DNA of 10,543 nucleotides, from positions 1 to 10,543 of the IMG/VR virus record IMGVR_UViG_2690316231_000017, one strand, 5' to 3'. The position numbers were made by a program, and so were the translations under genes. Under the pieces are notes generated by a model. It did no database searches and had not been told where the DNA came from. It saw nothing but the letters and a program-made list of their open reading frames with translations. This document shows positions 1 through 10,543 of the stretch, piece after piece (positions within the stretch are counted from its first letter, which is position 1; the number at the start of each line of letters is the position of its first letter). Origin of the DNA: a virus. Taxonomy: Duplodnaviria > Heunggongvirae > Uroviricota > Caudoviricetes.

Positions 1-11
1 AGTATTAAGAC

Positions 12-31
12 TATCACTTATTTAAGTGATA
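12..31. repeat. 9-bp perfect inverted repeat (TATCACTTA-tt-TAAGTGATA) just downstream of the DUF262 ORF stop
   Basis: Read directly: plus-strand 12-20 tatcactta, 23-31 taagtgata are reverse complements. Could be a weak terminator stem or a protein-binding palindrome. Confidence 0.4.
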
Positions 32-60
32 TTGGTTGTCTGGAGATTCAGGGGGCCAGT

Positions 61-501
61 CTACTGAATGTTGTTTTGAAAGTATGGCTTAGGAGTTTCA
101 TTAACTAATTTAAAAAAAGGTCTGCCATCGTCATCCATACCAGATATATAATTATTATATATTGATTGAGCTACAGCCAACTCATTTATCAACTTAAATT
201 TATCACATAATGCTGATAACAATATAGTAAGAGTCGTAAGACGTTGTTGACCATCTACAATCATCAGCTCAGAGCTAGTTTCCTGCCCGACCAAAACGAG
301 AGCACCGATGAAATACTCATCATATTGATACTGCCCATCCTCCTGGTAATGAATATTGGAAACTATATCATGCCAAAGTTCACTTACTTGTTCCTTCCCC
401 CAAGAATATTCTCTTTGGAATCTAGGGACTATATATTTTTTATTTACAGATAACACGTTTGTTAAGGTTCGAGCATTTGCTTGCAGTTCCACTGAGGCCA
501 C
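61..501 (-). CDS. DUF262 / ParB-like nuclease-domain protein (GmrSD N-terminal-type), only 146 aa, possibly a truncated remnant
   Basis: ORF track protein contains the hallmark DGQQR motif (..MIVDGQQRLTTL..) preceded by the Y-IVP-FQREYSW segment typical of DUF262. First codon is GTG (plus-strand 499-501 = cac) with an in-frame TAG immediately upstream. After the TAG stop at 61-63, all three frames hit stops within the remaining 60 nt, so the ORF does not continue. Visibly AT-rich. Confidence 0.6.
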   Translation of the reverse strand: MASVELQANARTLTNVLSVNKKYIVPRFQREYSWGKEQVSELWHDIVSNIHYQEDGQYQYDEYFIGALVLVGQETSSELMIVDGQQRLTTLTILLSALCDKFKLINELAVAQSIYNNYISGMDDDGRPFFKLVNETPKPYFQNNIQ

Positions 502-630
502 CTACTTTAGTTGTTTGTATTACACAGTTTTATAGCATTGGAGTTTGAATGACAACCCGTTGCGCGCGCTCGTATCCCCGCCACGCCTGCCCGCTTTATG
601 TAGTGGTTTTCATGCAGGTGCATGACATAA

Positions 631-654
631 GCAAAAGCCCGCCAGTTCTGGCGG
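631..654 (-). terminator. Candidate intrinsic terminator for the minus-strand cargo operon
   Basis: GC-rich inverted repeat CCGCCAG/CTGGCGG (plus 639-645 and 648-654). On the minus strand it is followed by GCTTTTGCTT (T-tract). It lies about 150 nt downstream of the membrane-protein gene stop (802). Confidence 0.4.
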
Positions 655-663
655 ACCTCAGCA

Positions 664-683
664 AAAACGATCCTAAAACGATC
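664..683. repeat. Tandem direct repeat AAAACGATC x2 (period 11 bp), each carrying a GATC site
   Basis: Read directly: 664-672 aaaacgatc and 675-683 aaaacgatc. Sits in a GC-richer intergenic block flanked by imperfect direct repeats TTCATGCAG (609-617 and 691-699). Confidence 0.5.
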
Positions 684-801
684 ATGCGGATTCATGCAGC
701 ATAGACATGCAAAGCTTGTTAGAACGGTGATTCCCATGTTAAAGGAGGCTTACTCTTGTTGAGGTTAAACATCCACAGTAACTCCTGCCAATACGAACAC
801 T

Positions 802-1338
802 TTATTCATCATAGTGTTCTAATTTCGCTTTTGCTAAACGTCCATGTAAGTGATTAACAAAATGTAAATTACTCAAAATCAGGCTCATAACGCATTTTAA
901 TTGCATCCAGCTAATAAAGTAAATGAAGAAAATACCAATGTATTTAAACAAGTCTTTATTAGCTTGATAAACAGGTAATGCATAAAACACTGCCTTAACC
1001 AAAAAGAAAATTAGAATCCCAGCCATAACACAAGCAGATGTGATTATTGTATAAACTAATTTCTCTATTCTTGGTGAGTCATGCTCATTTTTTATATAAC
1101 TTACATCATCCTTAACAATACTATTCATTGCATTCGGATATAAAAAACCGACCCATAAACCGACAATAGTGAATATAGATGCTGAAATATTTATAAGCGC
1201 ACCTAAAATATCTTTTGCATCATTATAGGAAAAACTTTTGAACGAAAAATAGCTTATAACGCAGCACAAAACAACAGCAACAAAATTAATCGCCTGCTGT
1301 TTTGCAACTGTTATTATCAAACCTTCCGTTTCTGTCAT
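802..1338 (-). CDS. Small integral membrane protein (178 aa, about four predicted transmembrane helices); second gene of the cargo operon
   Basis: ATG at 1338 (plus 1336-1338 = cat), stop TAA at 802-804. Four long hydrophobic stretches (INFVAVVLCCVISYFSF; ILGALINISASIFTIVGLWVGFLY; LVYTIITSACVMAGILIFFLVKAVFYALPV; YIGIFFIYFISWMQLKCVMSLILSNL). GGAAGG Shine-Dalgarno about 6 nt upstream. Stop of the upstream gene and this ATG are separated by 1 nt (TGATATG). AT-rich. Confidence 0.75.
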   Translation of the reverse strand: MTETEGLIITVAKQQAINFVAVVLCCVISYFSFKSFSYNDAKDILGALINISASIFTIVGLWVGFLYPNAMNSIVKDDVSYIKNEHDSPRIEKLVYTIITSACVMAGILIFFLVKAVFYALPVYQANKDLFKYIGIFFIYFISWMQLKCVMSLILSNLHFVNHLHGRLAKAKLEHYDE

Positions 1339-1339
1339 A

Positions 1340-2539
1340 TCAACCTTCCGCTATCTTTTTTGTGGATGCAGCTTCAGATTCTTTAATGGATGCTTCCTCA
1401 GCATATTTTACTTCACTAATCAAATCATCACGAATTTTGTTTATTTCATCCAGTAAAAAACGCGCTGAATAATGCTCAAACCCATCCGAATCTTGAAGAG
1501 GAAGTTTAGTCCTGGCTACATAGCTACTGAGCCAAACCGGATTAGCACGATCAGCCAGTAAAAAACCCACATCCCATTCAGACTCTTCACCTCTCATTGA
1601 GAAGAGATTTCGAAGCTCATCCGATGATGGTGCACCGTCAATTTTAACTTCAATTTTACGAGGCTGCTCCAAAACAGGAGGTGCCCCAATAAGCTTATTA
1701 CGCTTTTCTTCACCCACCAGAGATGCTAAAGCTACACTTGTTAGCTTCAACAATGGTTGCCTTGTGTCATTTTGGTTTATTACCGTTGTATCCTTTATCA
1801 ATGTGTGTGTAATTTTATGCCTTAACCTTTCAAAGTTTTCCTCAGCGGCTTTAAGTTTTGTTTCTTCCAATACAAACTTGAAGATACAGTTTATCTCATT
1901 TTTGCCATCTTTATATTGAAACTTAGTATTGTAGACATCCACACAACGACCAGGGGTCTTAGCTGATTCAAATGTACGCTTAGATTTCGTTCTTTTACCT
2001 AACTTACTATTATTATTTACATGCTGAATGAAGTATTGTGCGAAGAGATAAGTATCAGCGAAAGAATGGGGGAATCTGATTGATGCTATTTTATTCAACT
2101 CAGGAATAATCCAGTAATAGCAGGGTTCACCCCAAATTATTTTATCCTCACCATGTTCTCTTCCCGCCCTAATGGTTCCTTTACTATCACCACTTACTTT
2201 AGAACCGACCTTAATACCATGTATTCCGTTACCGTTCCCCACTTCACGGTATAAAACAATTACTGCATCTTTAGTCTGGCTGTCCCTCACAAGGCCTCGA
2301 CTGTAAACTCGTGTTCGCAGAGGTTGTTCTTCTTTATTCCATGGGAGAGTCTGCTCAAAATTTTTATCCTTGAGCCACCCTTCTAAATCGTCCAAAACCC
2401 CCATAAGATCGCCGAATTTATAATCAAGCTCTTCGGGTTTATTCTTTAAACGATAAAACCCACAAGCAGTAATATCAAAGAAGGTGATTGAGCCGTTGTC
2501 CACTAAAACTCCTTTTTGCCAAAGCAACACACGATACAT
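1340..2539 (-). CDS. Hypothetical 399-aa soluble protein, first gene of the cargo operon; no family assignable by eye
   Basis: Long uninterrupted minus-strand ORF, ATG at 2539 (plus 2537-2539 = cat), TGA at 1340-1342. No Walker A, no RT YxDD, no obvious nuclease motif. The only motif-like element is a GDSKG (GxSxG-like) pentapeptide, which is weak. AT-rich composition contrasts with the adjacent phage backbone. Confidence 0.75.
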   Translation of the reverse strand: MYRVLLWQKGVLVDNGSITFFDITACGFYRLKNKPEELDYKFGDLMGVLDDLEGWLKDKNFEQTLPWNKEEQPLRTRVYSRGLVRDSQTKDAVIVLYREVGNGNGIHGIKVGSKVSGDSKGTIRAGREHGEDKIIWGEPCYYWIIPELNKIASIRFPHSFADTYLFAQYFIQHVNNNSKLGKRTKSKRTFESAKTPGRCVDVYNTKFQYKDGKNEINCIFKFVLEETKLKAAEENFERLRHKITHTLIKDTTVINQNDTRQPLLKLTSVALASLVGEEKRNKLIGAPPVLEQPRKIEVKIDGAPSSDELRNLFSMRGEESEWDVGFLLADRANPVWLSSYVARTKLPLQDSDGFEHYSARFLLDEINKIRDDLISEVKYAEEASIKESEAASTKKIAEG

Positions 2540-2704
2540 TTTTCACGTATACCATCAGAATCGTCCCTAAACTTCAAGTTACTTATGATAATCAAGAAAG
2601 CTGTCGAATGTTGTTGCATAGGCCAAAGTTTCAGGGGAACAAGGCATTCTTAAATCACTTTTCACTACCTGTTTCTAACGCCTCACGCGGCTCGTTGTTC
2701 AACC

Positions 2705-2739
2705 TTGCGGACGATAAAAACCAGTTTTATCGTCCGCAA
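2705..2739. repeat. Perfect palindrome: 15-bp arms with a 5-nt spacer (TTGCGGACGATAAAA-accag-TTTTATCGTCCGCAA)
   Basis: Read directly: 2705-2719 is the exact reverse complement of 2725-2739. It lies 6 nt downstream of the DinI-like stop (2746) and at the boundary where composition switches to AT-rich cargo. No U-tract follows on either strand, so it is not a canonical intrinsic terminator. Confidence 0.7.
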
Positions 2740-2745
2740 CGTTCG

Positions 2746-2979
2746 CTAGTGTAACCAGCTGTCGTCCTCCCAGACCTTCTGCATAATTTTCATCACTTGT
2801 TTTCTTTCTTCGTCCAGTTGCAGTCCGGTCAGTTCCACACCGTTAGAGCTACCTTTGCGGATACGAATTACCGTTTTGGGATACAGGGGGCGCAGATTGC
2901 GGTAAAGCTCGGATTCAAGGGCGTCCAGTGTAGACTGGCTAATCTTCTGCTCTTTATCGATCATTATTTCAATGCGCAT
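2746..2979 (-). CDS. DinI-family protein (77 aa), SOS-regulated
   Basis: Protein MRIEIMIDKEQKISQSTLDALESELYRNLRPLYPK...KIMQKVWEDDSWLH aligns by eye with E. coli DinI (MRIEV..IDALAGELSRR...WESADDW) as recalled from memory. Start refined from the ORF-track 3051 to the ATG at 2979, which has a GAGGTG Shine-Dalgarno 4 nt upstream that overlaps the TGA of the preceding gene. Confidence 0.8.
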   Translation of the reverse strand: MRIEIMIDKEQKISQSTLDALESELYRNLRPLYPKTVIRIRKGSSNGVELTGLQLDEERKQVMKIMQKVWEDDSWLH

Positions 2980-2989
2980 AAAAGTCACC

Positions 2990-3178
2990 TCAGCTGATGA
3001 CATCCATTGAGCGGTTGTATTCATGGGTTCTGATTTTTGCCATGAGTTCATCTGTCAGTTCAGAAACCCACTGCAGGGCCAGCCCCTTCTCTTCATCACT
3101 ACATTCACTAGCCGCTACAAGCTTAAGAAAAAAATCAATGCGCTGGAGCTTCAAAGACTCCAAAAAATAGTCCTGCAT
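2990..3178 (-). CDS. Small SOS-operon protein (62 aa); possible Tum-like antirepressor or unknown function
   Basis: Start refined to the ATG at 3178 (plus 3176-3178 = cat) with a strong AGGAGG Shine-Dalgarno 4 nt upstream; stop TGA at 2990-2992. First gene downstream of the LexA box. No recognisable motif. The position is analogous to the tum region of phage 186, but the size does not match my recollection of Tum (about 146 aa). Confidence 0.55.
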   Translation of the reverse strand: MQDYFLESLKLQRIDFFLKLVAASECSDEEKGLALQWVSELTDELMAKIRTHEYNRSMDVIS

Positions 3179-3220
3179 CTTTCCTCCTATGACACCAAAG
3201 CAATACTGTATACATAACAA

Positions 3221-3245
3221 CTGTTTATATTTACAGTATATAATA
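3221..3245 (-). promoter_or_regulatory. LexA (SOS) box CTGT-N8-ACAG with an overlapping candidate -10; SOS-repressed promoter of the small-protein/DinI operon
   Basis: Plus-strand 3221-3236 = ctgtttatatttacag (CTGT, 8 AT-rich nt, ACAG; palindromic). On the minus strand TATACT (3240..3235) and TATTAT (3245..3240) are -10-like hexamers abutting the box. The box lies 43-58 nt upstream of the ATG at 3178. No convincing -35 found. Confidence 0.65.
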
Positions 3246-3251
3246 ATCTTA

Positions 3252-3282
3252 CTGATGTAAAACGTTTTTTTACGTTCATCAG
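3252..3282 (-). terminator. Candidate hairpin/terminator between the gene A stop and the SOS promoter
   Basis: Inverted repeat ctgatg...catcag (3252-3257 and 3277-3282) enclosing a palindromic AAAACGTTTT-type core. On the minus strand it is followed by AT-rich sequence. Position is consistent with termination of the early operon after A. Confidence 0.3.
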
Positions 3283-3330
3283 CCTGATATGCCTGGTATT
3301 ATTAAGAGCACGAATTGTTAACCCGCGTAA

Positions 3331-5745
3331 TTAATACAGATCCCGCCACTTATCATCTTCCTGCAAACGCTGGTTCCGATAGAAGATACGCAGGCCTGCT
3401 CCTGACGGAATACTGCCACCGCGAAGGAGTAAATCGACCTCTTTCTCGCTGCCATCAAATCCTCTGGACTTCAGTTCATAGACGAGCTGCTGTCGCTGAT
3501 GATCTGTAATTCGCTGTTTGTAGTCTCTACGCCGTTTCGGTTTCACCAGGCGTAACCTTGCAGCCAGTTCCCGGCGCTCTTTTTTGTTCATACTGTGCAG
3601 GTAATCGTGCAATTCCTTGTCATCCATGCGGGTGATATCCGTTCTGGTATCCCCATCAGCTGATTTGTCTTTCCCTTGTTGGTACAAATTTTCAGCAAGG
3701 GGACAGTTATTGCCACGAGTCCAAGGGGCGCAAGCGCCCTGGTCGGCTGCCGCCTCCTGAACGTCAACGGCCTTACGAACTATTTTCCACTTCACTGCAT
3801 GAGTGCAGATCTTGCCCTCTGCAATGGGTGACCAGATGCCATAAATACGAATACCGTGATCACCATAGGCGGTCGGCTCTTCGTTGATTTCATAAGCGGT
3901 TCTGATCAAGTGATATTTGCGGGGAACCAGTACGCCGCCCTGCTTCATGATGTAGGTGGCAAAACAACCAGCATCAGCAGCAGCCAGGATGGCATCAAGG
4001 CGCGGGTTATCCAGTACCGGCGCACCTGCTTTTTTGTCACCCTGTTGCCTTGCCGCCTGACCAGCCAGCAATCGCAGTTCACGGTAAGCCTGACGCCCCG
4101 GAATGCCAAAGAAGCGGAATTGCTGAACACGATGCAGAGACGCCCAGGCATTAACGTATTCAGCGTTATCACGCAGGGATTTACCCGTTTCCTTACTGAT
4201 CTCGCCAGCCAGACCACGCCCGTCAATATTCTTACTGATATATTTCGCAATGTAGCTTGTCGGCGTTCCTTTGCGCGGGTTTATCAGCTCAGACTTAAAG
4301 CGTGGCCCCGTGTTATTGCCCAGCTCCTCGCGGTCTTCACGGATGGCAAACTTACGCAACAATGCAGTAATGGCGCGGCGGTCTTTTTTGCGCATGAAAC
4401 ACAACAGGTGCCAGTGAACTGTGCCGTCATGATGCGGCTCAGCCACCCGCACGCCATACCAGCGCAACCCGGCTTTGTGCATAGCCTTACGAAATGCAGC
4501 AAACATGCCGACCAGATAATCGCTGCTTTGTCTTACTGTCGCGTTGGTCCAGGTCGGGTTTGGCCTACCGTTATTTAGCGTGGAATGGAAACGTGACGGA
4601 CAGGTGATGGTGTAGAAAACGGCGCAGTCACCACGCATTTCCGCGATAAGCTCCAGGCCTTTAACACAGGCCATCATCTCGTTGCGGCGATGCGCCGGGT
4701 TGCTGCTGCTGGCGTTTACCACATCCTCCATGTTCAGCGTGTCGCCGTCTTCGTTCACCAGTTCATGAGAACGGAAAAACTCCAGCGACTTACGGCGCTG
4801 CTCACGTTTATGCATCACGGCTTCATAGCTGACATAGGGAGATGCTTTTTTGCTGACCAGGCAGACAGCACGCAACTGCTCTTCCCGCCATTCGCAACGC
4901 ATCTTCCATAATTTCCGATACCACCAGTCGGCGCACAGCATACGCGCCAGCGACCCCGGAATGAGTTCATAGGGCACGGGTTTACGGCGGTTTCTTTTCC
5001 GGCGGAGTTGCTCAAACGCAGGCGGTATGACATCCAGTCGCAGGGTTTCTGCTGCCACCTTTTCCCATGTCTTGCGGATTTCTTCTGGCTTAACGTCATC
5101 GGTGGCATACAAATCACCACAAGCGGCATCAAGGCACATGCTCATATGCGCAGCGACAAGGGTAGACAGGCGCTTCACCTGATCCTGACTCATTTCAGGC
5201 AGGATAAGCAGGCCATCCAGCCCTTCATGGCTTGCCATAAAGCGAAAAGAAGTGGATAGCTGACAGTCGCGGACATGCTCCAGTCGTTCCAGACATGGCT
5301 TAATCGTCTCACGCAAATAGCGGGAATAAGCCTTTGGCCTGCCCAGGCTGCTGAAATATTCAATACGTTGCATCAGCGGCTTGCTGATATGGGAAGGCTG
5401 GGCATTGACGTCAGCCAGAATGACCATGTCTGGATTAAAACGCTGCTGCTCATGCGCCAGCTTTGCCCGGCTAATGAGCTTATCCTGCTCCATTTCGCGC
5501 TGGACAGGATCACGGGATTCATTAAAGAAATAACGCTCCCAGACCTGATCACTCAGTGCCTCGCGGCGCAGTTGTTCCTGCTCGTTATCGGCAGCGTACA
5601 GAGTGATCAGGTTTGAAAGTGCAGAAACCGGCGCAACTTCCGCCGGGTCCTGATAAGGGTTAATAGCCTTTTTCGGGCTGTTCCATGAGAATGCTGCGGC
5701 GACCTCGTTAAAGCCGCTGCAGTTGTTCATATCATCATGGCTCAT
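3331..5745 (-). CDS. A: Phage replication initiation protein A (P2 gpA-like HUH rolling-circle endonuclease), 804 aa
   Basis: 804-aa minus-strand ORF with an HUH motif (HWHLL, residues 444-448) and a paired-tyrosine active-site motif SYIAKYISK (Y498 and Y502, codons at about 4252-4254 and 4240-4242), the arrangement characteristic of the P2 A-protein family. Start ATG overlaps the dam stop (ATGA). Stop TAA at 3331-3333. Confidence 0.9.
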
Positions 5746-6599
5746 GCACGCACTCCGTATACGGCTGAACTATCCACGCCACGCGAAGGATCAAATCCCA
5801 CCCAGCAGCGCGGCCCGGAAACAGCGATGATTTCAGTTGCAGATTTACTCTCACCAGCTGCTACGCCGATGCTGCGTTTTGCCTTGATGTAGTGGTGAGT
5901 AAAATTGCGATACAGCGAACGGATCAGGGATGTGTCACTGTTAGAAACAATGACCGGATGTCCTTCTGATGACCGATGTTCAAGCACAGATGCCAGGCGA
6001 TACTGGTCATCTTCAGTGAAGCCATCAGTGTGATAGCCGGAAAACGTACCGTCATAAGGCGGATCGCAATACACAACATCCCCCGCGTGCAACATCGCCA
6101 GCGTTTCATCGAAGCTGGCGCAGATAAACGTTGCCCGCTGGGCTTTCTCTGCAAATGCGCGAATTTCTTTTTCAGGGAAATACGGATTTTTATAATTACC
6201 GTAGGGAATGTTGAAATGCCCGCTCTTGTTATAGCGACATAACCCACGGTAACCATGTCGATTGAGATACAGGAAATATACCGCTTTCATGAAATTAGTA
6301 ATTTCAGTTGAGTAGTTAAACTCCTGCCTTATGTTGTAATAAGCCACCTCCCTGTTTGCTTCCTCAAATAAAACTCTGGCGCGAGATATAAATAATTCAC
6401 AATCAGCGGCAACCTTTTTATAGAGGTTGATTAAATCAGGATTAATATCCGCAACCAGATAGCTGGGGTAATCCGTTTCCATCATCACTGCACAGGAACC
6501 CGCGAAAGGTTCAACCAGTCGCAGGCCAGCAGGAAGGTGTTTTTTCAGTTCTGGCATAATGGCGGTTTTATTTCCCGCCCATTTCAGGATGGTGCTCAT
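5742..6599 (-). CDS. dam: Dam-family DNA N6-adenine methyltransferase (GATC-specific type predicted)
   Basis: Protein shows the conserved Dam blocks as recalled for E. coli Dam: [41 protein letters not shown], and the catalytic DPPY motif ([10 protein letters not shown]). Start ATG overlaps the TraR-like stop (ATGA); stop overlaps the A start. Confidence 0.9.
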
Positions 6600-6823
6600 A
6601 CAGCACCTCCGTTGTAATGTTTACCTTTCAGCTCTGCGATTTCCTGACAGGTAATGCAAAGCTGCACTCCCGGAATGGCGCGGCGGCGTGCTGGCGGAAT
6701 TGGCGCTTCACACTCTATGCAAAGCACGCGAGACACGCCCGGTGTTTTGGCACGGGCAGCACGGATGTGGCGCTGGCGTTCTTCTTCAACGCGCTGCTGT
6801 ACGAGATCCATTGCATCAGCCAT
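6596..6823 (-). CDS. TraR/DksA-family C4 zinc-finger protein (75 aa)
   Basis: LCIECEAPIPPARRRAIPGVQLCITCQ...KHY matches the C-x2-C...C-x2-C finger and flanking residues of F-plasmid TraR as recalled (CEACGNPIPEARRKIFPGVTLCVECQ). ATG at 6823 overlaps the upstream stop (ATGA). Confidence 0.8.
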   Translation of the reverse strand: MADAMDLVQQRVEEERQRHIRAARAKTPGVSRVLCIECEAPIPPARRRAIPGVQLCITCQEIAELKGKHYNGGAV

Positions 6824-7056
6824 CAGTGGATCTCCTGCGCTTCGTTCTGGATTGCTTCAGCAGTCACACGCAGCAGTTCTGCCGCTTCGACGTGGTTTAG
6901 TTGGCGGGATGTGATATGACACGCCAGGCTATCAAGGCGAGCTGCCATTGCTTCAGCCCTTGCCCGGCGTTCTTCCAGACGAGCCTCTGTCAGTAAAATA
7001 TTAAGCCCTGCATCATCCGGTCCGGTTTTAGTCGTGAGGGTTTCAATATTACGCAT
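6823..7056 (-). CDS. Hypothetical small protein (77 aa) of the early lytic operon
   Basis: The ORF-track start at 7062 is a TTG; the first ATG is at 7056, with an AGGAGA Shine-Dalgarno about 8 nt upstream. Backbone-like GC content. Stop overlaps the TraR-like start. Confidence 0.55.
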   Translation of the reverse strand: MRNIETLTTKTGPDDAGLNILLTEARLEERRARAEAMAARLDSLACHITSRQLNHVEAAELLRVTAEAIQNEAQEIH

Positions 7057-7123
7057 AATCAATTCTCCTGAATTTAGATAAAGGGATGCCCGGCGGGTTT
7101 ACGCCATTAATTTCATTAGTTGG

Positions 7124-7465
7124 TTAATTCGGCATGGTTAGCCGTCTGGGAAATAAGCTCACCACTGCACGAAAATGATTCATTGCTTTAATCAACTCCC
7201 GCTTTTCGTCAGTGGTCAGCTCATTAATGCTGATGCTATGACGTTCAGCTGGAATTTTTGCCATAAAGAATATGGCAGCCAGTGCCCTTTTATTTTGTTC
7301 ATTATTGATATCCCATGGATCACGCATATCTTTAATAAACCGCTCAAGCTCTGACTCAATATTTAGGCCAAAAACTTTCGCCCTTAACTCCGCAATGTGA
7401 TTAAGTCCATTCAGGCGTTCACCGGGGCTTAATGGAACAGTCGCCGCAGTGCCTTCAATAGCCAT
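7124..7465 (-). CDS. Hypothetical protein (113 aa) of the early lytic operon
   Basis: ATG at 7465 with a GGGGGA Shine-Dalgarno-like element 5 nt upstream. Overlaps the 3' end of the upstream small ORF by 37 nt in another frame. No recognisable motif. Confidence 0.5.
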   Translation of the reverse strand: MAIEGTAATVPLSPGERLNGLNHIAELRAKVFGLNIESELERFIKDMRDPWDINNEQNKRALAAIFFMAKIPAERHSISINELTTDEKRELIKAMNHFRAVVSLFPRRLTMPN

Positions 7466-7629
7466 TTGTTCCCCCGTTTTTTCGTAGATAGTTCTGCCAG
7501 CAATTCATCTTGTGAACGGCACGGATGCCAGCGTTTACCATCCTCCCCCATGATCCAGCCGTGACCGTAATGCATTGCCGGGCTTTGTTTAACCAGCAGC
7601 GATGCAAATGATGGTTCTTTCGTCAGCAT
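7429..7629 (-). CDS. Hypothetical small protein (66 aa); positionally analogous to the post-cII small genes of phage 186
   Basis: Start refined from the ORF-track 7659 to the ATG at 7629, which has a GAGGTG Shine-Dalgarno overlapping the cII-like stop codon (TGA at 7637-7639). Identity not established. Confidence 0.45.
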   Translation of the reverse strand: MLTKEPSFASLLVKQSPAMHYGHGWIMGEDGKRWHPCRSQDELLAELSTKKRGNKWLLKALRRLFH

Positions 7630-7636
7630 AAGCACC

Positions 7637-8146
7637 TCACAGCAAACCAAATGAAGCACCGAGGCCAGTCACGGTATCAACTGCACTCGCCATCGCAGGA
7701 TTAGCCTGTAAACGGGCCTGCAATGAAACAGCCGCCAGCGCCATCAGTCGTGTTACAGAGTTAATGCTACTGATAGCATCACGACGACCGGCACAGGTTT
7801 TTACATCGCCAGACACCGCACCTGCAGCAACACGCCCGATCTCTGCGGTTGCACTCATGACGTAATGTGGCAGTTTCTCTTTTGCCACCTCATTAATCGG
7901 TACACATGGCAGACAATGAATCTGTGCCAGAAAACCATCTACCAGCGTTGAATCTTCAGTCAGATCGGTAAGCAGCCAGATTTCTGGTGCGGTTAATAAA
8001 TGAGGCTGAGCTGGGTTCAGCTTGTTCCGCAGAATCTGCACATTCATGCCTGCACGTTCTGCCAGTTGCACCAGATTGTGGCGCAGTGCAAATGCACGAC
8101 AGGCTTCATCAAAATGTGGATGTTTGGAAACTTGGTAATCAAACAT
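7637..8146 (-). CDS. cII: Phage 186 CII-like transcriptional regulator (169 aa)
   Basis: The ORF-track start is a TTG; the ATG two codons in (8146) gives a 169-aa protein, the length I recall for 186 CII. It sits immediately downstream of the excisionase-like gene, as in 186 (apl-cII). AGAGG Shine-Dalgarno about 8 nt upstream. Assignment rests on position, size and recollection, not on an alignment. Confidence 0.6.
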
Positions 8147-8178
8147 GGTCAATGCCTCTGATGTATTTCAGAATCGAA

Positions 8179-8400
8179 CTAATTAAGGTTTAGATTGCAT
8201 TCTGAAAGCGCATCAACGGTCATTGCTGCTATGTTGATCATCACTTTTTCGCGTTTTTTATCTTTGCGCAGACGGTGACGGATAAGGCGTCCATCAGCCA
8301 ACATGTCATTGATGGTATCGATGGATAGCCCTGTCAGCTCGCTATAGCGTTCAATAGTCACATGAGGCGTGGTAAGAGTGATTGAAATGTTAGGTCTCAT
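8179..8400 (-). CDS. Apl/Cox-like excisionase / early-promoter regulator (73 aa)
   Basis: First gene of the leftward operon, diverging from the repressor gene. Small basic protein with a helix-turn-helix-like segment ([21 protein letters not shown]). ATG at 8400 with a GAGGA Shine-Dalgarno upstream. Confidence 0.55.
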
Positions 8401-8472
8401 GATGCAACATTCCTCGTTTAATGATGATTAATCAGGACGAATACGGATCGTTTGTATTTTGTGAACACCATA

Positions 8473-8501
8473 AACATACGATCGCACAGTGAAATCGTCA
8501 A
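8473..8501 (-). promoter_or_regulatory. Candidate lytic (pR-like) sigma70 promoter for the apl/cII operon
   Basis: Minus-strand -35 TTGACG (plus 8501..8496), 17-nt spacer, -10 TATGTT (plus 8478..8473); predicted start about 65 nt upstream of the apl-like ATG. The switch region also holds direct repeats ATACGGATCG (8441-8450) and ATACGATCG (8476-8484) and inverted GTGAAC (8461-8466) / GTTCAC (8509-8514) motifs as candidate operators. Confidence 0.4.
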
Positions 8502-8525
8502 GATAAAAGTTCACTTGGAGTGACC

Positions 8526-9095
8526 ATGAATTTGGAGAAAGGCGGACGAGGCGCCATAGAGCGCATGGTAGAAGCTTATGGATTCAAGACTCGACAGGCG
8601 TTGTGCGATCATTTAGGAATCTCTAAAAGTACACTCGCCACACGCTACATGCGTGACTCATTCCCAGCAGAATGGGTAATCCAGTGCGCCCTTGAAACAG
8701 GCACCTCGCTTAATTGGCTCACAACCGGGCATGGTTCAAAGCAAACTTCAGGTAATACAAATACTATGGAAGTTGCTAAATATGTATTATCTGATGGGGC
8801 CTTGTGTGAAGACGGTTTTTATATTTTCGATAGAGAATTTCTACCGTCGGCATTCAAGAATCTTTTTGTAATCACAGATAATAATTCTGAATTTATTTGT
8901 GATAAGGAATTTGATGATATACGTGATGGTAAATGGGTAATAAGTATTGATGGCGAAATAACGATCCGTGACATTACTCGTTTACCCGGTGGAAGAATCT
9001 TCGTCGAGGGTGGAAACAGAGCCTTCGAATGTAAGATAGAAGACATTGAAATAATTGGTAAAATTATAAGTTTAACAGTCAAGTATGTTAAATAG
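8526..9095 (+). CDS. cI: Phage 186 CI-like immunity repressor (189 aa)
   Basis: The ORF-track start at 8520 is a GTG; the ATG at 8526 has a GGAG Shine-Dalgarno 5 nt upstream. N-terminal DNA-binding region (EAYGFKTRQALCDHLGISKSTLATRYMRD...CALETGTSLNWLTTGHG) plus a C-terminal domain. Divergent from the apl-like gene and upstream of int, as in 186. Stop TAG at 9093-9095. Confidence 0.7.
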   Translation: MNLEKGGRGAIERMVEAYGFKTRQALCDHLGISKSTLATRYMRDSFPAEWVIQCALETGTSLNWLTTGHGSKQTSGNTNTMEVAKYVLSDGALCEDGFYIFDREFLPSAFKNLFVITDNNSEFICDKEFDDIRDGKWVISIDGEITIRDITRLPGGRIFVEGGNRAFECKIEDIEIIGKIISLTVKYVK

Positions 9096-9110
9096 TACCG
9101 GGAGGAAATT

Positions 9111-9302
9111 ATGCTTGGTAAGGTATTTTTTGTGGTTTTGTCATGTTCTTTGTTATTAAACCCACTAGCTACCTATGCTAGAAATTATCCCTGCTCAGGG
9201 AAAAAGGGAGGTGTTTCTCACTGTACCTCTGATGGCAAATTCGTTTGCAATGATGGAACTATTAGTAAATCCAAAAAAATCTGTACTAAAAACTCACGAT
9301 AA
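9111..9302 (+). CDS. Small secreted Cys-containing, Lys-rich peptide (63 aa precursor) between cI and int; candidate moron
   Basis: Strong GGAGG Shine-Dalgarno (9101-9105) 5 nt before the ATG at 9111. N-terminal signal-peptide-like sequence ([23 protein letters not shown]) with no lipobox, then an approximately 40-aa mature part with four Cys and many Lys/Gly/Ser. AT-rich. Confidence 0.55.
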
Positions 9303-9437
9303 CTTTTGCTTTTATATCTGCGCCTAAAATAAAAATGAGCCACAGGTTAACCGCAAAAGTTACATGATCACATAGCAAAAAGAATAGCCTACTTCATTAT
9401 GGCTTCAGTGAGATGTATGGTCGCAGGATTTCATACA

Positions 9438-9466
9438 TTGACACTGGTTATACATACAGTAAAAAT
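9438..9466 (+). promoter_or_regulatory. Candidate sigma70 promoter immediately upstream of int
   Basis: Perfect -35 TTGACA at 9438-9443, 17-nt spacer, -10-like AAAAAT at 9461-9466, followed by a GGAGG Shine-Dalgarno (9477-9481) and the int ATG at 9491. Confidence 0.3.
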
Positions 9467-9490
9467 GCTCTCTATTGGAGGGCATTTTTT

Positions 9491-10543
9491 ATGGCTGTAC
9501 GAAAACTCACCACAGGAAAATGGCTTTGCGAATGTTACCCCGCCGGACGTAGTGGGCGTCGTGTGCGTAAACAATTCGCCACCAAAGGCGAAGCACTGGC
9601 TTTTGAGCGTCACACGATGGAAGAAACCGAAGCAAAGCCCTGGCTAGGTGAATCAGTGGATCGTCGAACACTGAAAGACGTGGTTGAGCTATGGTTCAAA
9701 CTACATGGTAAATCACTGACTGCTGGGCAGCATGTCTATGACAAATTGCTGCTGATGGTTGACGCTCTGGGCAATCCCCCTGCAACTGATCTAACCTCTA
9801 AAATGTTTGCCCACTATCGAGATAAACGCCTGACAGGTGAGATCTACTTCAGCGAGAAATGGAAGAAAGGAGCAAGCCCGGTCACCATTAATCTGGAGCA
9901 AAGCTATCTAAGTAGTGTTTTTAGCGAACTATCCCGCCTGGGCGAATGGTCGTATCCGAACCCACTGGAGAACATGCGAAAATTCACCATCGCAGAAAAA
10001 GAGATGGCATGGCTTACCCATGAGCAGATTGTTGAATTACTGGCTGATTGCAAACGTCAGGACCCAATTCTGGCACTGGTAGTTAAGATATGCTTAAGCA
10101 CAGGCGCACGCTGGCGAGAAGCCGTAAATCTTACTCGTTCACAGGTGACCAAATACCGAATTACCTTTGTAAGAACGAAGGGGAAGAAAAACAGAAGCAT
10201 CCCTATCAGTAAAGAGCTTTACGAAGAGATCATGGCGCTTGATGGGTTCAATTTCTTCACAGACTGCTATTTTCAATTTTTATCCGTGATGGAAAAAACG
10301 TCTATCGTGCTCCCTCGCGGTCAACTCACACACGTTCTGCGCCATACGTTTGCGGCGCACTTCATGATGTCGGGTGGAAACATTCTGGCCTTACAAAAAA
10401 TTCTCGGACACCACGATATAAAAATGACTATGCGTTACGCACATCTGGCACCGGATCATCTGGAAACGGCGCTCCGTTTCAATCCTCTGGCAACGCTGCC
10501 AAGTGGCGACAAAGTGGCGGCAGCGGTTGGCATTACCCCGTAA
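9491..10543 (+). CDS. int: P2-type tyrosine integrase (site-specific recombinase), 350 aa
   Basis: Start refined from the ORF-track 9413 to the ATG at 9491 (MAVRKLTTGKW..), based on resemblance to the P2 Int N-terminus as recalled and on the upstream Shine-Dalgarno. Conserved catalytic blocks LSTGARWREA, HVLRHTFAAHF and MRYAHL (catalytic Tyr). Stop TAA at 10541-10543, so the gene is complete; attP would lie beyond the window. Confidence 0.9.
   Translation: MAVRKLTTGKWLCECYPAGRSGRRVRKQFATKGEALAFERHTMEETEAKPWLGESVDRRTLKDVVELWFKLHGKSLTAGQHVYDKLLLMVDALGNPPATDLTSKMFAHYRDKRLTGEIYFSEKWKKGASPVTINLEQSYLSSVFSELSRLGEWSYPNPLENMRKFTIAEKEMAWLTHEQIVELLADCKRQDPILALVVKICLSTGARWREAVNLTRSQVTKYRITFVRTKGKKNRSIPISKELYEEIMALDGFNFFTDCYFQFLSVMEKTSIVLPRGQLTHVLRHTFAAHFMMSGGNILALQKILGHHDIKMTMRYAHLAPDHLETALRFNPLATLPSGDKVAAAVGITP

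Follow-up and report, generated by a model that had tools for sequence, protein, structure and literature searches.

A structurally conserved, strand-specific stem-loop module at the backbone edge of the cos-proximal cargo slot in P2/186-like prophages

Introduction

What purpose could be served by a long, perfect palindrome lying between the backbone of a P2-family prophage and the exchangeable genes that it carries? We met this question in a 10,543-nucleotide (nt) stretch of a Caudoviricetes genome (IMG/VR record IMGVR_UViG_2690316231_000017, positions 1 to 10,543), here called the window. On its plus strand, positions 2705-2739 read TTGCGGACGATAAAA-ACCAG-TTTTATCGTCCGCAA, i.e. two arms complementary at 15/15 positions around a loop of 5 nt. 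As a preliminary description made from the sequence had noted, this palindrome lies 6 nt from the TAG stop codon (2746-2748, minus strand) of a DinI-like gene. The same description located it exactly at the junction between backbone and cargo and proposed a factor-dependent terminator or RNA-processing hairpin, a binding site for a dimeric regulator, or a conserved recombination anchor for the exchange of hotspot cargo. A cos-proximal defence hotspot has been described for P2-like phages (PMC9122126, PMC13586616), and the recombination process at the P2 hotspots is stated as not understood (PMC13586616).

Here we show that the palindrome is one lineage's version of the stem in a module of about 70 nt whose pairing, but not stem sequence, is under selection on one strand, followed by a nearly invariant tail whose last base marks the edge of the cargo slot. 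An element acting in the messenger RNA (mRNA) is the explanation that we favour, and it is weighed below against four others.

Structure of the element

Chance does not account for the palindrome, the longest perfect hairpin of the whole window. When the window was shuffled 60 times under a first-order Markov model, the longest perfect hairpin measured 7-11 base pairs (bp), and a hairpin having arms of 15 bp or more around a loop of 3-10 nt is expected about 9e-5 times per window, which bears out the earlier remark that a palindrome of this length is unlikely to be accidental. A repeat finder extended the arms to 19 nt (2701-2743) with a single G.G mismatch.

Read on the minus (coding) strand, the palindrome is the stem of hairpin 1 in a module spanning 2743-2675, with the layout stop codon, 2 nt, AAC-(17-bp stem)-GUU-GAACAACGAG-N6-GAGGCGUUAG. 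Hairpin 1 (2701-2743, minus strand; AAC-G-TTGCGGACGATAAAA-CTGGT-TTTTATCGTCCGCAA-G-GTT), delimited by sequence, fold and covariation, contains the perfect 15-bp palindrome as its core, and its base lies 2 nt from the DinI-like stop. It runs directly into the invariant tail motif 1, GTTGAACAACGAG (2691-2703, minus strand), the first three bases of which form the 3' base of hairpin 1. A variable spacer (CCGCGT, 2685-2690, minus strand), 5-7 nt long in relatives and predicted to form the loop of a weak helix 2, separates this motif from the invariant tail motif 2, GAGGCGTTAG (2675-2684, minus strand), which was placed by the homology breakpoint and the alignments and ends at the last conserved backbone base. 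The folding energy, a check suggested by the preliminary description, supports a stable structure: the 80-nt module folds as RNA at -33.8 kcal/mol (z = -5.2), a value that none of 200 shuffles equalled, and as DNA at -21.7 kcal/mol (z = -6.3).

The distance from AAC to GUU is nearly constant among relatives (44-47 nt, about two helical turns), as expected of a measured substrate and not of a generic hairpin. The helix comprises 19-20 positions with a conserved G.G mismatch near its base, and thus has the two turns or so of near-perfect duplex that characterise an RNase III site. Three further features suggested for the module were rejected. A closing helix between the flank of the stop codon and GCGUUAG, suggested by the fold of the window's sequence, shows no covariation, since permuted partners score equally well; a small open reading frame (ORF) in the tail is incompatible with the spacer variation of 5-7 nt, which breaks the frame, and with the stops in the other frames; and matches that would allow antisense or seed pairing between the tail and another site of the window are no commoner than chance.

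The element is apparently undescribed. Rfam covariance models run against the whole window returned nothing at gathering thresholds and only chance-level matches at E <= 10 (the best with 19.8 bits against a gathering score of 100). It is mentioned neither in the hotspot papers nor in the results of a full-text search for the motif string, a search outside which older subscription papers on 186 and P2 fall; the literature on the 186 SOS operon, the P2 replication strand and the P2 TO region, with the same older papers not covered, likewise contained nothing on it.

Selection on pairing and on one strand

Relatives were collected in two ways. First, 105 loci were fetched through the DinI protein, reading 200 nt after its stop codon, and a scan of IMG/VR with the tail pattern added 120 further loci; these gave an alignment of 107 distinct, motif-selected module sequences. 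An independent sample of 52 distinct sequences was retrieved not by the motif but through a protein encoded downstream, phrog_2100.

RNAalifold applied to the 107 sequences returned helix 1, with 17 pairs, and the weak helix 2. Among the 17 pairs of helix 1, 14 have changed on both sides in a compensatory manner, two vary on one side and one is invariant. Altogether 95.4% of the helix 1 cells are paired, as opposed to 27-45% over the whole structure once the 3' partners had been shifted by 1-3 columns; the covariation score is 0.395, compared with 0.197 in shuffles and 0.07-0.12 with slid partners, and none of 500 shuffles matched the observed value on any of five measures. Helix 2 is uninformative either way because it is almost invariant and hence shows next to no covariation.

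Pairing is kept while the paired bases change. Arm sequences vary even among Escherichia coli prophages with identical DinI proteins; the closest relatives of the window have a mismatch where it has an A-T pair, and most others have a different stem sequence, often with wobbles or mismatches at the positions that are perfect in the window. Selection thus acts on the structure of the stem and not on its sequence. The alignment across related prophages that the preliminary description had called for accordingly gave a divided answer: the module is kept in most relatives, the exact palindrome is not, and the module is missing altogether from P2 itself and from one class of relatives that do bear DinI.

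The constraint is also asymmetric between the strands. Stem cells read on the coding strand include 142 G.U or U.G pairs as against 11 A.C or C.A; pairing reaches 95.4% on the coding strand and 88.2% on the opposite one; and the coding-strand fold is the more stable in 87 of the 107 sequences (mean -23.4 versus -17.0 kcal/mol). The same asymmetry holds in the sample retrieved through phrog_2100 (77 G.U versus 8 A.C). Selection on a duplex is blind to strand, and the excess of G.U over A.C therefore argues for an element that acts as a folded single strand of coding-strand polarity, either RNA or single-stranded DNA (ssDNA), and against a palindromic operator in double-stranded DNA.

The tail and the gene behind it

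Unlike the stem, the tail is conserved in sequence. Motif 1 is identical in all of the 107 motif-selected sequences, and both motifs are at least 90% conserved in the 52 distinct sequences obtained through phrog_2100. At 38 of 188 module-bearing loci an ATG follows GAGGCG after 6-7 nt (i.e. GAGG lies 8-9 nt before the ATG) and opens an ORF of 85 amino acids belonging to phrog_2100 (MGxKDxNYQIVYRGE..PGGWVFFQRPKECGGGYWLGRTYD), a family without assigned function, which ends at the cos block (e.g. L133, L021, L014 and L209). The GAGG of the tail thus appears to serve as the phrog_2100 ribosome-binding site in about one fifth of the relatives. Conversely, 75 of 80 loci found via the phrog_2100 protein have the module directly upstream, and the ancestral layout was therefore likely the last backbone ORF, the module, phrog_2100 and cos, with GAGG as the ribosome-binding site. 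A remnant of phrog_2100 was searched for in the window and none was found.

The tail is equally invariant where no ORF follows the module, and also where phrog_2100 has its own LexA-box promoter and a ribosome-binding site about 60 nt further on. The latter arrangement was seen at five loci (L278, L284, L286, L295 and L305), where phrog_2100 appears to be an SOS gene. At two other loci (L124 and L162) a 107-amino-acid ORF starting MGFPSPAQDYVE directly follows the module; it looks like a member of the UmuD family by eye and, if so, would be another SOS-type gene in the slot.

Annotated read-through in phage 186

The preliminary description had observed that the palindrome lacks a downstream U-tract and does not resemble a simple intrinsic terminator, and this holds far beyond the window. 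Its stem-loop is GC-rich (15-19 bp), as in such terminators, but there is no T/U run 3' of it on either strand, a terminator scan of the window called no terminator at the site, and the 3' flank of the hairpin is GAACAACGAG in 107/107 relatives. In phage 186, tum is followed by the canonical terminator t95a (annotated as partial), by orf97, by the module (L110 2846-2914) and, 22 nt later, by t95b. The phage record (NC_001317) annotates both terminators and not the module, and gives t95b as the terminator of the p95 transcript; t95b lies downstream of the module, and the annotated long p95 transcript therefore includes it. An intrinsic terminator was rejected on both counts, the missing U-tract and the downstream position of t95b.

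The window and 186 share this neighbourhood, comprising a LexA-controlled promoter, a tum or DinI-like gene, hairpins and cos, and the window's palindrome occupies the position after DinI that is held by t95a in 186. The two 186 terminators differ from the module in being canonical GC stems with T runs, and the module, which has no sequence similarity to either, is a separate element that lies in 186 between orf97 and t95b. Since orf97 intervenes between tum and the module, the latter is not tied to the DinI stop, and cargo can occur on either side of it.

Distribution and orientation

Throughout the 188 module-bearing loci the orientation is almost fixed. The replication endonuclease gene A lies upstream on the same strand at 168 of the 168 loci where it was detected, DinI upstream on the same strand at 159 of 160, and at 126 of 127 the portal gene follows downstream, encoded by the other strand; the distance from module to cos ranges from 153 nt to 3.5 kb. 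At 103 of 133 distinct loci the stop of a co-directional ORF lies 0-3 nt ahead of the stem. The ORFs ending there are mutually unrelated, being either DinI-like or of 72-78 amino acids with a PPPRRP end; the latter precedes the module in P2-type phages with the helicase-loader gene B. At 13 loci, 450-900 nt separate DinI from the module. The satellite P4 lacks the module, as P2 does, and matches in a plasmid database all fell in P2/186-like genomes or fragments, so that an occurrence outside P2-like phages was rejected.

Every locus has one module, save for one with two complete inverted copies (L190 3856-3938, minus strand, and 6229-6311, plus strand) that lie 2.3 kb apart and are each followed by a phrog_2100 ORF, one of them truncated; this pair could reflect an inverted duplication, two prophages lying head to head or an artefact of assembly. 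At three loci (L147, L204 and L221) the DinI-like ORF lacks its usual stop, reads into the hairpin and ends in the loop, so that in those phages the 5' arm of the stem belongs to the coding sequence. A Salmonella Newport record (p20723-1; L314 2853-4030) has a Fic-family gene on the opposite strand between gene A and an intact module, a case of cargo upstream of the module in which no co-directional ORF ends at the stem.

Edges of the cargo slot

The junction was mapped by megablast against phage records and 5,426 complete E. coli genomes. Homology mostly ends at query position 276, i.e. window position 2675, which is 30 nt past the palindrome on the cargo side; smaller classes of matches end at 2691, 2736 and 2750-2755. 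The GC content declines gradually across 2400-2850. Contrary to the initial placement, the palindrome is thus not exactly at the boundary between backbone and cargo, nor is it the conserved breakpoint; the junction is the last base of the module (GCGTTAG, window position 2675), and exchange occurs less often upstream of the whole module, as with orf97 in phage 186. Nearly all of the loci fetched through DinI share the same order on the coding strand: a stop codon, 0-3 nt, AAC, a variable stem-loop, GTT-GAACAACGAG, 5-7 variable bases, (C)GAGGCGTTAG, then unrelated sequence. The BL21-type classes, where homology appears to break in or before the palindrome, have this layout too, with a GCCCCCA...TGGGGGC stem and a somewhat diverged tail, and are recovered by the covariance model.

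The far boundary is equally sharp and falls at GCATGTCTATGC, where a cos-proximal block begins (560-710, minus strand; GCATGTCTATGC...). This block contains an intrinsic terminator (about 655-631) and the putative cos core GGCGTGGCGGGGATACGAG (about 587-569), the cos assignment being suggested by similarity to the ends of 186 and P2. Repeated TGCATG motifs occur in the block, and an ORF listed at 507-737 (minus strand) is probably not a gene. At 69 of the 174 module-bearing loci with a recognisable cos the slot is empty, and the conserved block (GCATGTCTATGCCGCATGA..., a canonical terminator GCCCGCCAGAACTGGCGGGCTTTTG and the cos core GGCGTGGCGGGG in relatives) begins 5-13 nt after the module. 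The window's cargo, a pair of genes of the candidate defence system PDC-M18, sits exactly in this interval, with the module on one side and the cos-binding block on the other. A 7-nt inverted repeat, GTTAGAA, at both ends of this cargo was considered as a target duplication or recombination scar and rejected, as it was not seen at other cargos.

Gene content of the window

The window shares 99.9% identity with a prophage of E. coli D9, and its genes are ordered as in a 186-like phage of the P2 family: integrase, CI, CII, Fil, Dam, A, a small ORF, the DinI-like gene, cargo, cos, cargo and portal. Gene A (3331-5745, minus strand) contains a replication origin, assigned by similarity to the annotated origins of P2 and 186 (3710-3745, minus strand; a hairpin GGGCGC-TT-GCGCCC and, behind it, CTTGGACTCGTGGCAATAAC); about 970 nt separate this origin from the module, which is downstream of it on the same strand. 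An ORF of 62 amino acids (phrog_698; 2990-3178, minus strand) is the first gene of a presumed SOS operon and precedes the DinI-like gene (77 amino acids; 2746-2979, minus strand), whose product shares 41% identity with the C-terminal half of Tum, the antirepressor of 186. The idea that the 62-amino-acid ORF corresponds to the N-terminal half of Tum was rejected, no similarity being found by BLASTP. Upstream of the two genes lies the LexA-box-like sequence TACTGTAAATATAAACAGTT (3219-3238, minus strand), judged by eye as a match to CTGT-N8-ACAG and the positional counterpart of the LexA site of the 186 p95 promoter; this suggests an SOS-controlled operon like p95-tum. A second, weaker LexA box may overlap the first (about 3203-3222).

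The PDC-M18 cargo (802-2539, minus strand; A, 1340-2539, and B, 802-1338; PADLOC E = 6e-31 and 3e-18) is AT-rich and without Pfam domains. No intrinsic terminator lies between it and the SOS operon, and the cargo may therefore be co-induced with that operon. Across cos, a PIN-domain gene (window 61-442, minus strand; L001 2988-4043) between cos and portal occupies a second cargo slot; it had no PADLOC match. Finally, an imperfect inverted repeat of 22 nt (9451-9499; 77% complementary, loop of 5 nt) is located at the start of the integrase gene region.

Discussion

We give about an even chance to the module being a cis-acting stem-loop of the mRNA, which would serve the upstream message as a processing site or exonuclease barrier. 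This reading draws on the coding-strand polarity, the G.U wobbles, the placement after an ORF, the read-through in 186 and the use of a ribosome-binding site; among the options originally offered, the RNA-level hairpin (for processing or a factor-dependent 3' end) likewise fits the compensatory changes and the coding-strand G.U pairs best. We infer both that RNA is the relevant strand and that processing or stabilisation is the activity. Transcription in the folding sense is suggested by the co-directional ORF ending 0-3 nt upstream, the 186 terminator downstream and the probable role of GAGG in translation.

The stem-loop would fold within the mRNA, just after the DinI-like stop, without terminating transcription itself, and would act as a barrier to exonucleases and/or as an endonuclease site of the RNase III or RNase E type. 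Such a site would define where the upstream DinI/Tum-like SOS message ends at its 3' side and what half-life it has, uncoupling it from whatever follows, be it phrog_2100, as in many relatives, or swapped-in defence cargo, as here; such a role would give a reason for the element's place beside variable cargo. The invariant tail, GAACAACGAG-N6-GAGGCGUUAG, would be the likely recognition determinant, doubling as the phrog_2100 ribosome-binding site where that gene is present.

Several points weigh against an mRNA element. The sequence does not discriminate between RNA and displaced ssDNA, and how the element points with respect to transcription is fully confounded with how it points with respect to the rolling-circle origin in gene A. 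Its host transcription unit varies, being the SOS operon in 186-like phages but the early operon in those of the P2 type, and in the Salmonella locus the element follows the promoter side of the opposite-strand Fic gene; these settings would suit a role at the DNA level equally well. The module is moreover dispensable, because P2 and one class of close relatives do without it. Lastly, a plain exonuclease barrier would need no invariant tail, and translation does not explain how strictly the tail is conserved.

Of the other explanations, a signal in ssDNA survives best, and we still consider it unlikely. Here the coding strand, displaced by rolling-circle replication, would fold, and a factor of the host or the phage would recognise hairpin and tail; the gene A protein would nick the origin about 1 kb upstream, and the factor could be a primosome or primase entering for the lagging strand, or the module could be a secondary site for the A protein. 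The fixed orientation relative to gene A and the origin, seen at all 168 loci, fits such a signal, as do the selection for structure on one strand, the stability of the fold as DNA and the persistence of the element in varied surroundings of ORFs and transcription units. Sites read by ssDNA-binding enzymes, such as HUH and primase sites, typically combine a variable stem with an invariant single-stranded tail. On the other hand, P2, the phage in which this mode of replication was worked out, has no module. The anti-correlation that would be predicted with the helicase-loader gene B fails, as relatives encoding B carry the module, and a substitute for B was rejected for the same reason. A 7-mer shared by the tail and the P2 origin is conserved neither in 186 nor in the window, which disposed of a proposed similarity between the tail and the gene A origin. 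Finally, about 8% of the stem cells are G.U/G.T, although G.T makes a poor pair in DNA, and the GAGG-ATG spacing shows use of part of the tail at the RNA level. That the signal is the lagging-strand start site of 186/P2-like phages, read by a host primosome or primase or by the phage HUH endonuclease, and possibly also the structure that channels foreign cargo into the neighbouring slot, is no more probable.

We regard a recombination anchor as improbable. It would make the module the left flank and the cos-binding block the right flank of the slot, exchange proceeding by ordinary homologous recombination of phages resident in the same cell or by a structure-directed single-strand mechanism like that of attC sites. 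Homology does break sharply after GCGTTAG with many different cargos, as it does at the far junction, and service as a passive homologous flank is almost certainly real, as a by-product of conservation; two constrained elements around a free zone would, however, give sharp junctions anyway. The breakpoint lies 30 nt from the palindrome, each locus and not each cassette has a module, no recombinase travels with the cargo, cargo may sit upstream of the module (186 orf97 and the 13 loci with a gap after DinI), the module is retained at the 69 loci with an empty slot, and the short repeat at the ends of the window's cargo does not recur. A dedicated recombination site is thus not supported.

A Rho-dependent terminator or pause hairpin that ends the SOS or early transcript before the cargo is a poorer candidate again. 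In the window, DinI and the cargo genes are not separated by an intrinsic terminator, and some relatives have a new LexA-controlled promoter after the module with no other terminator in between. The hairpin stands right after a stop codon, and transcripts terminated by Rho are commonly trimmed back to a stem. Against this, the annotated p95 transcript of 186 ends at t95b, beyond the module; about one fifth of the loci use a ribosome-binding site inside the module, implying read-through; the flank is not C-rich and G-poor; and a canonical terminator 20-90 nt further on in many relatives would make a second one redundant.

The binding site for a dimeric regulator that the preliminary description had entertained, a palindromic operator in double-stranded DNA, is effectively refuted by covariation and strand asymmetry: its perfect dyad and long arms are found in the window's phage only, close relatives differ in arm sequence while keeping the pairing, so that no half-site is conserved, the ratio of G.U to A.C cells cannot come from duplex selection, and the conserved bases fall outside the dyad.

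What the module does bears on a widespread locus, since 1072 of the 5426 complete E. coli genomes match the region, placing P2/186-like prophages in about a fifth of them. Anti-phage systems have a major reservoir in the cos-proximal slot, whose boundaries are now set to the base: GCGTTAG, where a structured element under strong constraint ends, and opposite it the cos-binding block. The module thus provides a handle for delimiting cargo, together with a covariance model for finding the element elsewhere, and is a candidate regulator of the SOS/antirepressor message that governs prophage induction. A plain stabiliser of 3' ends would be useful but ordinary; an ssDNA signal, if true, would offer a mechanism for why defence genes accumulate exactly here.

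Comparison with known systems

Close parallels are the RNase III sites and retroregulators of phages (T7 R1.1-type sites, lambda sib), stem-loops of about 20 bp without a U-tract that lie between cistrons and control the stability of the upstream message. The module resembles them in its stem of about 20 bp, in lacking a U-tract and in following one cistron and preceding the next ribosome-binding site. It differs in having no sequence relationship with them and in a strongly conserved single-stranded tail without counterpart. Repetitive extragenic palindromic (REP) sequences and bacterial interspersed mosaic elements (BIME), such as that of malE-malF, are intergenic stem-loops that stabilise mRNA, and the module, likewise a stable hairpin just past a stop codon, could block 3'-5' exonucleases and buffer the upstream gene in a similar way. 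Those elements are dispersed, multi-copy host repeats with their own consensus, whereas the module is single-copy, phage-specific and fixed in its place in the genome.

Integron attC sites also conserve the structure and not the sequence of a stem, are selected on one strand and lie at the edge of exchangeable cassettes. They come one per cassette with the junction inside the site, whereas the module occurs once per hotspot, with no dedicated recombinase and no pattern of R and L boxes, and its junctions lie either immediately beyond the final tail base or immediately ahead of the base that opens the stem. The single-strand initiation signals, such as the n' site of phiX174, ori-c of G4 and the ssi and sso of rolling-circle plasmids and other rolling-circle replicons, are matched by the module in that it is an orientation-dependent hairpin downstream of a rolling-circle origin, probably on the displaced strand; P2, however, replicates without it. 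We would place the module, outside the families of Rfam, as a conserved and probably cis-acting structured element that appears most akin to the intercistronic processing hairpins of phages and to mRNA-stabilising stem-loops.

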